Assembly (NCBI GenBank): GCA_963754655.1
Contig: CAVWGN010000001.1
Location: forward strand, 608,001-672,000
Source of the DNA: an uncultured Chlamydiae bacterium
GTDB lineage: Bacteria > Chlamydiota > Chlamydiia > Chlamydiales > Parachlamydiaceae
DNA length: 64,000 nt
Direction of reading: 5' to 3'
Shown: piece after piece, positions 14,280 to 15,014 of the stretch
How the letters are laid out: every line of letters starts with the position of its first letter
How positions within the stretch are numbered: the stretch's first letter is position 1
The notes under the pieces: model-generated
The model's input: only the letters and a program-made list of their open reading frames with translations
Told to the model about the DNA's origin: nothing
Databases searched by the model: none
Translations under genes and position numbers: made by a program

Positions 14280-14308
14280 TTGACAATTCCTTCTCTATTT
14301 GCTATCAT
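14280..14308 (+). promoter_or_regulatory. sigma66/sigma70-type promoter P-a
   Basis: TTGACA-17 bp-TATCAT with extended TGn. Confidence 0.75.
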
Positions 14309-14375
14309 AAGAATTGAGGAGAGATTAAAGAATCTTTATAGATTTCTCTCCTCTTTTTGAATTTAAATTTTTTAT

Positions 14376-14404
14376 TTGACAAATTTAATAGAATTTAGTA
14401 TCTT
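14376..14404 (+). promoter_or_regulatory. sigma66/sigma70-type promoter P-b
   Basis: TTGACA-17 bp-TATCTT. Confidence 0.7.
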
Positions 14405-14528
14405 GAAGATAGATGTAAGGGAATGAAATCTTTAAGAAGATTTCTTCCCTTTTGTGAACGACAATTTGAGGTGAGAGTAAGGAATCTTTTAGGTTTCTCT
14501 CTCCCTCTTTATTAATTAAAGATTTTTA

Positions 14529-14557
14529 TTGACAAGGTCTGTGAAATCTGTTAATCT
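14529..14557 (+). promoter_or_regulatory. sigma66/sigma70-type promoter P-c
   Basis: TTGACA-17 bp-TAATCT with extended TGn. Confidence 0.7.
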
Positions 14558-15014
14558 AAATATAGAGTTAGGGAAATGAAATCCTTGAAACGATTTCTTT
14601 CCCTTTTGAAAAATGTATTTTGAGGAGAGATCAAAAATTTGTGTATCTCTCCTCATTTAAAGAGAAGTAAAAAAGCTAACATAATTCTTGTAAGAAAAAT
14701 CAAATAATATTATTATTAAATAATAAATAGAAATGAATAGTTCGTTTCTTGTTTTTCCGGTGTAATAATTTAAATTAAATTTCCGTCAACCTAAACTTTA
14801 GAATGTAAAGATTATCAAAAAACTTTGACATTCTGTTTGACACTTTCGAATGATGCACTTTTTACATCGAGCTTTTTGGCGAAAAGATGCAAATGAAGTC
14901 AAAACTTATCAAAAAATTGAGCCGGCATTGGCTAAAAATAAAACGGGTGTAAGAAAAAAAAGAGGGTTGACATAAGGGTGTGAATAAGTTTTAGAAAAAA
15001 TTTAGAAAAAGCTA

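Follow-up and report, generated by a model that had tools for sequence, protein, structure and literature searches.

A putative array of distal promoter and hairpin modules upstream of one rRNA operon in an uncultured member of the Parachlamydiaceae

One of the rRNA (rrn) operons of an uncultured chlamydial bacterium is preceded, at a distance, by a row of promoter-like sequences and hairpins. Judged from its sequence, this array is a species-specific expansion of a distal promoter and hairpin module, with three apparently strong copies and one decayed copy. The module itself appears to be a new conserved element. It can be recognized in at least six genera, seems to have been stacked independently in several of them, and has no match in Rfam. 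An original prediction made from the letters of this DNA had placed promoters and hairpins here, and their presence at those positions is confirmed.

The reading preferred here, although it is held with somewhat less than even confidence, is that distal promoters are stacked in the array and are followed by terminator hairpins that leak. Such a stack would give mostly hairpin RNAs of 45-100 nt, together with some read-through toward the rrn operon.

Anatomy and setting of the array

The window, meaning the whole stretch of DNA analysed, is 64,000 nucleotides long, and all positions refer to it. The rrn operon, with 16S, 23S and 5S genes identified by Rfam, occupies 15255..20333 on the + strand. 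It is one of two in a genome of 3.16 Mb that is 96.7% complete. Upstream and divergent, on the - strand, lies a gene for a DUF4116 repeat protein (12646..14127; mechanical ORF list and domain match). The gap of 1127 bp between this gene and 16S (15255) contains the array, about 600-1000 nt upstream of 16S.

The roughly 100 bp at the 5' side of the DUF4116-repeat gene (14128-14228) also precede at least 14 other loci, with 77-85% identity; among these is a tandem cluster at genome position C1:1400839-1421356. This recurrence points to a large paralogous gene family with a common 5' region.

Three promoters of the form TTGACA-17 bp-TAnnnT had been predicted at 14280, 14376 and 14529, each preceded by TTTTTA(T). 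All three are found with spacers of 17 nt, and a T-run followed by A or AT lies 5' of each. P1 (14280..14308, +) has its -35 at 14280-14285 and its -10, TATCAT, at 14303-14308; TG stands before the -10, a T-rich tract lies 5', and the consensus scan gives 11/12. P2 (14376..14404, +) has its -35 at 14376-14381 and TATCTT at 14399-14404, and scores 10/12. P3 (14529..14557, +), with its -35 at 14529-14534, has a weaker -10, TAATCT at 14552-14557, in which T1, A2 and T6 are kept. It was found by pattern match and is absent from the consensus-scan list because its -10 matches TATAAT at only 3/6 positions. A decayed fourth promoter, TTGTAA and TATTAT separated by 17 nt, lies at 14688..14716 (+) and scores 9/12.

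Across both strands of the genome, TTGACA-N17-TAnnnT occurs 63 times, compared with 59 expected from composition. Three of these 63 sites fall within 250 bp, on one strand, in the array.

On the rrn strand of the window, six exact TTGACA hexamers lie in less than 700 bp (14280-14972), at 14280, 14376, 14529, 14825, 14837 and 14967. A seventh is located in the leader at 15130. The array accounts for only three of them.

Five hairpins are found in the order P-A, P-B-A, P-B-A, as originally described. Each fold was scored by its energy in kcal/mol, its z-score, and the fraction of 200 dinucleotide shuffles folding at least as well. All five are on the + strand. A1 (14316-14353; 14316..14358 with its run of five Ts) folds at -17.7 kcal/mol (z -2.4, 3/200). 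B1 (14417-14452; 14417..14455 with its tail) contains a single-U bulge, is followed by TTTTG, and folds at -16.7 (z -4.0, 1/200). A2 (14468-14507; 14468..14513 with its tail), followed by TTTATTAATT, folds at -19.1 (z -3.2, 2/200). B2 (14570-14605; 14570..14609 with its tail), again followed by TTTTG, folds at -14.5 (z -3.3, 1/200). A3 (14621-14655; 14621..14659 with its tail) folds at -18.2 (z -5.7, 0/200) and is followed only by CATTT, a poor U-tract.

The tails on the + strand are T5 at A1, T4 at B1 and B2, TTTATT at A2 and CATTT at A3, and the minus strand has no T-run at these hairpins. The claim that all hairpins end in T runs is therefore correct for four of the five and fails for A3. 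A terminator-type scan gives the array hairpins, with their T-rich tails, -11 to -18 kcal/mol (A1 -15.6 with the tail TTTTTG, A2 -17.9, A3 -11.3), and the control terminator 3' of 5S scores -19.2 with T8. A scan for purine-arm hairpins also recovers A1. Elsewhere in the genome, 40 of 206 purine-arm hairpins have a GA-rich arm, a CU-rich arm and a T-run. Such hairpins look like the ordinary terminators of this genome, and the array hairpins appear to resemble them.

In all five minimum-energy folds the CU-rich stretch is the paired 3' arm, and the GGA motifs also lie in stems. The folds are independent hairpins, and no alternative antiterminator fold was seen among them.

The array had been described as free of ORFs, but the mechanical list has one of 30 aa at 14423-14515 (+) and one of 46 aa at 14516-14656 (-). 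On the + strand, ORFs of 30 and 15 codons (14423-14515 and 14575-14622) start inside hairpins B1 and B2. Their first eight codons are common, the differences are mostly synonymous or conservative, and a Shine-Dalgarno-like (SD-like) run abuts the ATG. The shared codons are probably a by-product of duplication, and no counterpart of these ORFs was seen in the units of other genomes, which were read by eye. A mini-gene or leader-peptide attenuator was rejected on these grounds, as the ORFs share only their first codons, via duplication, and have no counterpart in the modules of relatives.

The units of the array are direct repeats, as determined by repeat finding, with 72% identity over 167 nt in blastn. 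A global alignment of units 2 and 3 gives 106 identical positions among 155 aligned. Identity is 6/6 in the -35, 13/17 in the upstream T/A (UP-like) tract, 27/31 in the B stem and 22/31 in the A stem; it is 3/6 in the -10 (T1, A2 and T6 kept), 7/17 in the spacer and 9/16 in the linker. The proposal that selection keeps boxes and pairing over spacers is borne out by the -35 and the B stem, set against the spacer and the linker. In B2, compared with B1, the G3/C3 block is displaced one position further along in both arms, and the 7-bp lower stem is therefore kept.

The array can be compared with that of the sister species of the same genus, here called G002. The end of the P1 spacer and the start region are common to the first promoter module of G002, and the decayed promoter at 14688-14716, read by eye, resembles its second promoter. 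This suggests that units 2 and 3 were inserted or duplicated in the present species only.

The array is confined to one locus. A blastn search of 14260-14670 against the genome returned only self-matches inside the array, and a profile of the units (nhmmer) recovered only the three units, plus one match elsewhere at E 0.46. A MITE or other dispersed repeat, the ordinary explanation named in the original prediction, was rejected on these two results.

Searches for known RNAs in the window gave rRNAs only at Rfam gathering thresholds (Rfam 15), with no family in the array. The best sub-threshold matches there were SpF39 (34.3 bits compared with a threshold of 60), RT-14 (26.2 compared with 48.1) and SIB (19 compared with 56). 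So far as Rfam is concerned, the suggestion of an undescribed element thus stands. ARAGORN placed no tRNA at the array. The 6S RNA model of Rfam (RF00013) has no match in the genome, although it has limited sensitivity and in a control detects 6S in 5/14 well-known genomes; the array does not look like 6S RNA, and this candidate was rejected. A literature search, with passages of PMC3333780, PMC3061062, PMC10402869 and PMC5451489, did not turn up any account of an element of this kind.

The array is distinct from the ordinary rrn promoter. The canonical promoter, TTGCGT-N18-TATGTT, lies outside the array at 15015..15044 (+) and is found at both rrn copies, in the family and in other families. 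The second rrn copy, where a further array was also sought, has none; it has only the last ~257 bp before 16S, including the 15015-15044 promoter, in common with the first. In six rrn-upstream regions from five other families of the order, the TTGCG-type proximal promoter is present in 6/6 and the distal module in 0/6, and these spacers are short, with nothing array-like in them. In the family alignment, conservation is poor over the ~400 nt that separate the array from the rrn promoter.

The leader at ~15128-15178 pairs with the 16S-23S spacer at ~16836-16878 over ~45 nt and forms the 16S processing stem. Sequences resembling boxA and the processing stem occur only in this proximal leader, and nothing comparable is found 3' of the array hairpins. 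A canonical rrn promoter or leader was rejected as an identity for the array, which is missing at rrn copy 2 and in 6/6 other-family regions and has no boxA-type element after its hairpins.

Two further observations concern the proximal region. The promoter at 15015-15044, including its spacer, is conserved in the family and in the five other families far beyond the need of a promoter alone. In the leader strand of the processing stem, AATAGAGC occurs, which is also the 8-mer at the start of the distal modules in G002 and in a second relative, G011.

Homologous modules in related genomes

Relatives are referred to below by number (G000 is the genome of the window), with a letter for the rrn copy. 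When the entire spacer was compared by BLAST with 41 related genomes, matches were confined to the proximal ~260 bp. For a closer comparison, 60 rrn-upstream regions were taken from 39 genomes of the family, and 58 of them were scanned with a promoter pattern and a loose pattern for the start region; both patterns were designed after the first examples were known.

A module was found upstream of one rrn copy in eight genomes of six genera (G000, G002, G006, G011, G020, G084, G085 and G087). All modules are on the 16S strand, 436-975 nt before 16S, at one rrn copy per genome. They consist of a -35 of the TTGACA, TTGCAA or TTGAAA type, a 17-nt spacer, a TAnnnT -10, a conserved stretch after the -10 that resembles AAGAATAGAG (ATTGAG or ATAGAT in some), and a hairpin whose 5' arm is GA-rich and whose 3' arm is CU-rich.

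The module was not seen in the rrn-upstream regions of the other 31 of the 39 genomes, one draft of the same genus included, but three of the 31 have look-alikes recognized by eye (G050b, G074a and G077b). Many relatives are drafts with rrn at contig ends, so a module that was not found is not necessarily absent.

The loose pattern gave 19 matches on the forward strand of the 58 regions, compared with 5 on the reverse, and several of the 19 are probably chance. A profile of 14 modules, run on the 60 regions, recovered only those same sequences at E<0.01, with G050b at E 0.15; since the profile was built from them, this recovery is not independent evidence. A stricter pattern, TTGACA-N17-TAnnnT-N3-6-ATAGAG, matched 14 times in 73 genomes of the family, compared with 2 matches of the reversed control. 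At rrn it matched only G000, G002 and G011, and the remaining matches look like chance or ordinary gene promoters.

One strict-pattern match, in G080, was considered as a module and rejected, as it belongs to a different, strongly structured RNA of its own genus. This RNA of ~170 nt (L036:1290-1508, - strand) follows a strong promoter, folds at -74.5 kcal/mol (z -5.8) and has a terminator at its end. It is kept in three genomes of its genus, has no Rfam match, and does not lie beside rrn.

A separate observation concerns G011, in which a long near-perfect palindrome (L014:2386-2494) lies just upstream of the distal module. On both of its strands, models of plant and animal microRNA precursors match below threshold.

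In relatives a CCGTCAA block is conserved 3' of the module, and the window has this block at 14783..14789 (+). Its distance before 16S is 472 nt in G000a, 500 in G002a, 513 in G011a, 471 in G020a, 558 in G084a, 525 in G087a and 372 in G077b. The three array units themselves lack it. The decayed promoter at 14688-14716 may be the positional counterpart of the promoter that lies nearest this block in relatives.

The block was considered as an antisense element to 16S around position 920. As a general feature this was rejected, since in 6/7 genomes the duplex is no better than those of spacer 22-mers (fraction of controls as good 0.11-0.58). The duplex stands out in G002a only, where 0/142 controls are as good.

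The module stays with rrn and not with its neighbourhood. It is co-oriented with rrn and adjoins it in 11/11 genomes compared, and the upstream gene differs in most of them; a common upstream neighbour was found by tblastx only in G011a, G085a and G087a.

Stacking is found in other genomes as well, with two promoters in G002 and in G011, three or four in G085 (L047) and three in G050 (L074). The stacks of G085 and G050 consist of near-identical promoters, arose independently, and lie upstream of one rrn copy. In G085 no hairpin or U-tract stop separates the stacked promoters, which points to promoter dosage for a common downstream transcript.

Observations of this kind can also be explained by plain stacked distal rrn promoters, all three of which would feed full-length pre-rRNA of one operon, with the hairpins as leader stabilisers or processing sites. 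Strict rrn linkage and co-orientation, the uninterrupted promoters of G085, and the conserved stretch right after the -10, which behaves like a discriminator or start region, fit this explanation. So do the hairpins of relatives, the first of which mostly lacks a U-run and usually has only 2-3 U. In the array, however, 4/5 hairpins have U-tracts on the transcribed strand only, with scores near that of the rrn terminator. The leader would moreover be 700-1000 nt long and poorly conserved, and the module is missing from other rrn copies and other families. This explanation is accordingly judged improbable.

The hairpins vary considerably between genera. The promoter-proximal hairpin beats 95% of shuffles in 9/14 modules, and 5/14 have no such hairpin. 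In most relatives a single hairpin of weak to moderate strength, followed by a T-rich tail, is present at some point 5' of the proximal promoter. Their usual layout is a 5' hairpin, an A-rich linker with CCGTCAA and, 100-180 nt after the promoter, a second hairpin whose tail is U/C-rich.

Covariation in homologs had been proposed as a check, and across genera none was found; what is conserved is the promoter, the first ~10 nt after the -10, and some hairpin. RNAalifold, run on 10 modules, predicted 0 pairs and thus no common structure. The RNAs that can be aligned amount to two sequences, and MAFFT misplaces the 3' arms of the A hairpins. A structured RNA family with covariation was rejected on the RNAalifold result; within the array there is one coordinated two-arm shift, in B1 compared with B2. 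The conserved feature of the modules is a GA/CU hairpin in general and not a particular helix.

A further possibility is that the array has no function as RNA. It could be a set of neutral tandem duplications in an AT-rich spacer, or a row of sites for RNA polymerase or another protein (a sink, an operator or a supercoiling device), with irrelevant transcripts. Each genome with the module has it at a single locus, none was seen in 31/39 genomes scanned, TTGACA hexamers are numerous on the + strand of the spacer, and RNA-level covariation was not found. The -35, the spacing and the stems are nevertheless conserved above background divergence, and the U-tracts are strand-specific. From species to species a hairpin is kept although the sequence of its arms changes, which argues against a sequence-specific operator. 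A DNA-level role or none is, on balance, a shade more improbable again than plain stacked promoters.

What the array may produce

The anatomy, duplication, selective conservation, homologues and rrn linkage described above are observed; promoter activity, termination, read-through and any effect on rRNA synthesis are inferred. Each copy would act as a promoter for the sigma-70-type factor, which in chlamydiae we take to be sigma-66, and its transcript would fold immediately into a hairpin, GA-rich in the 5' arm and CU-rich in the 3' arm. The units most likely fire strongly and stop early. Early termination is likely because four of the five hairpins are terminator-like, with U-tracts on the + strand only.

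The predicted products are RNAs of ~45 nt from P1 to A1, P2 to B1 and P3 to B2, and of ~100 nt from P2 to A2 and P3 to A3. Some transcripts would escape termination and continue across the CCGTCAA block, in the direction of the rrn promoter and 16S.

The original prediction had offered two interpretations, an sRNA family (as a protein sponge or an anti-SD regulator) and a promoter-attenuator cascade at rrn. The cascade fits the comparative pattern better. A kept promoter and start with any hairpin, strict co-oriented linkage to rrn and multiplied promoters suit a cis-acting transcriptional device better than an sRNA with a conserved seed.

Several points weigh against this reading. Among them are the lack of U-runs after most first hairpins of relatives, the modules with no hairpin better than shuffles, the missing consensus structure, the poor conservation between array and rrn promoter, and the 31/39 genomes in which no module was seen. 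The module is also dispensable for the second rrn operon and, in relatives, for copies b-d. Furthermore, five terminator-like hairpins in series imply little read-through, so that the array may contribute negligibly to rRNA, and its product could be the short RNAs.

The short RNAs are central to a serious, though less likely, alternative: free-standing multicopy sRNA genes, in which each unit makes an abundant hairpin RNA of 45-100 nt that acts in trans, either as a protein ligand or by base pairing that involves its 5' end or CU-rich arm, and for which the adjacency to rrn is synteny only. By sequence prediction every unit has a promoter and an intrinsic terminator with a strand-specific U-tract, although that of A3 is poor. 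The rrn operon has a canonical promoter further downstream, and the module is missing at other rrn copies. The units of relatives are sRNA-like in layout, with a 5' hairpin, a CCGTCAA linker and a second hairpin, and a weak full-length resemblance to the two-hairpin SpF39 model of Streptococcus is present (34.3 bits compared with 60).

The RNA, however, is hardly conserved past its first ~6-10 nt, and its arms differ between genera without covariation. The CCGTCAA block of relatives is missing from the three array units, and 11/11 genomes keep the module co-oriented beside rrn while the upstream neighbour changes.

CsrA (PF02599) has no match in the genome (96.7% complete), and an Hfq gene was not found there. 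With neither protein found and the CU-rich stretches locked in stems, the protein sponge, pairing that depends on Hfq and the classical anti-SD sRNA are all weakened. The sponge is further disfavoured by the position of the GGA motifs, which are in stems, and the proposed anti-SD-like CU-rich arms lie inside stems and not in loops.

A broader version of the leaky-terminator reading can also be considered, although it is an unlikely one. The array would then belong to an undescribed, family-wide control locus on one rRNA operon, whose lineage-multiplied modules serve as a tunable gate, for instance through terminator leakiness that tracks nucleotide supply in these nucleotide-importing intracellular bacteria. 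It would also release very abundant 5'-triphosphate hairpin RNAs with a possible role in trans.

If the array is active, its units are probably among the strongest promoters of the genome. It would then exemplify the means by which an obligate intracellular bacterium, having only two rRNA operons, can supply extra transcription at one of them or gate it there, or else produce very abundant tiny RNAs. If it is inactive, it is an ordinary tandem duplication in an AT-rich spacer.

Comparison with known systems

The model SpF39 (RF02434) describes two hairpins joined by an A/U-rich linker, the second being a terminator, and it matches the array over its full length at 14558-14660. Its score of 34.3 bits compared with a gathering threshold of 60 reflects a generic structure only, and the array is not a member of this family.

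LhrC1-5 of Listeria and the csRNAs of Streptococcus are multicopy tandem sRNA genes with CU-rich anti-Shine-Dalgarno motifs. The array, known from sequence, is similar in having sibling units in a row, each with its own promoter and terminator-type hairpin, and in its CU-rich stretches. In LhrC and the csRNAs, the CU-rich motifs are conserved and exposed in loops or single strands, whereas in the array they make up the 3' arm of each perfect stem and differ from genus to genus. The predicted RNAs of the array are also shorter. An anti-SD sRNA of this type was rejected, as the CU-rich stretch is paired in all five folds. An RNA sponge for CsrA or RsmA was rejected as well, given the lack of a PF02599 match in the genome and GGA motifs that lie in stems instead of loops.

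Bacterial rrn operons with P1 and P2 promoters and a structured boxA leader share several features with the array, namely strong promoters of the sigma-70 type, A/T-rich upstream tracts, a head-to-tail arrangement into the rRNA operon and an early hairpin. The array differs in lying 600-975 nt upstream of 16S, outside the conserved leader, and in its terminator-like hairpins. Moreover, it accompanies only one rrn copy out of two, and other families of the order lack it.

Attenuators of the pyrBI type have an intrinsic terminator between promoter and operon. The array resembles them in that a hairpin and U-tract follow within 10-50 nt of a promoter, ahead of the gene that is finally expressed. 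It differs from them in having no leader ORF common to the units of other genomes and no antiterminator fold that could be seen. It has, instead, five putative stops in series and three promoters, and the operon that follows has its own downstream promoter.
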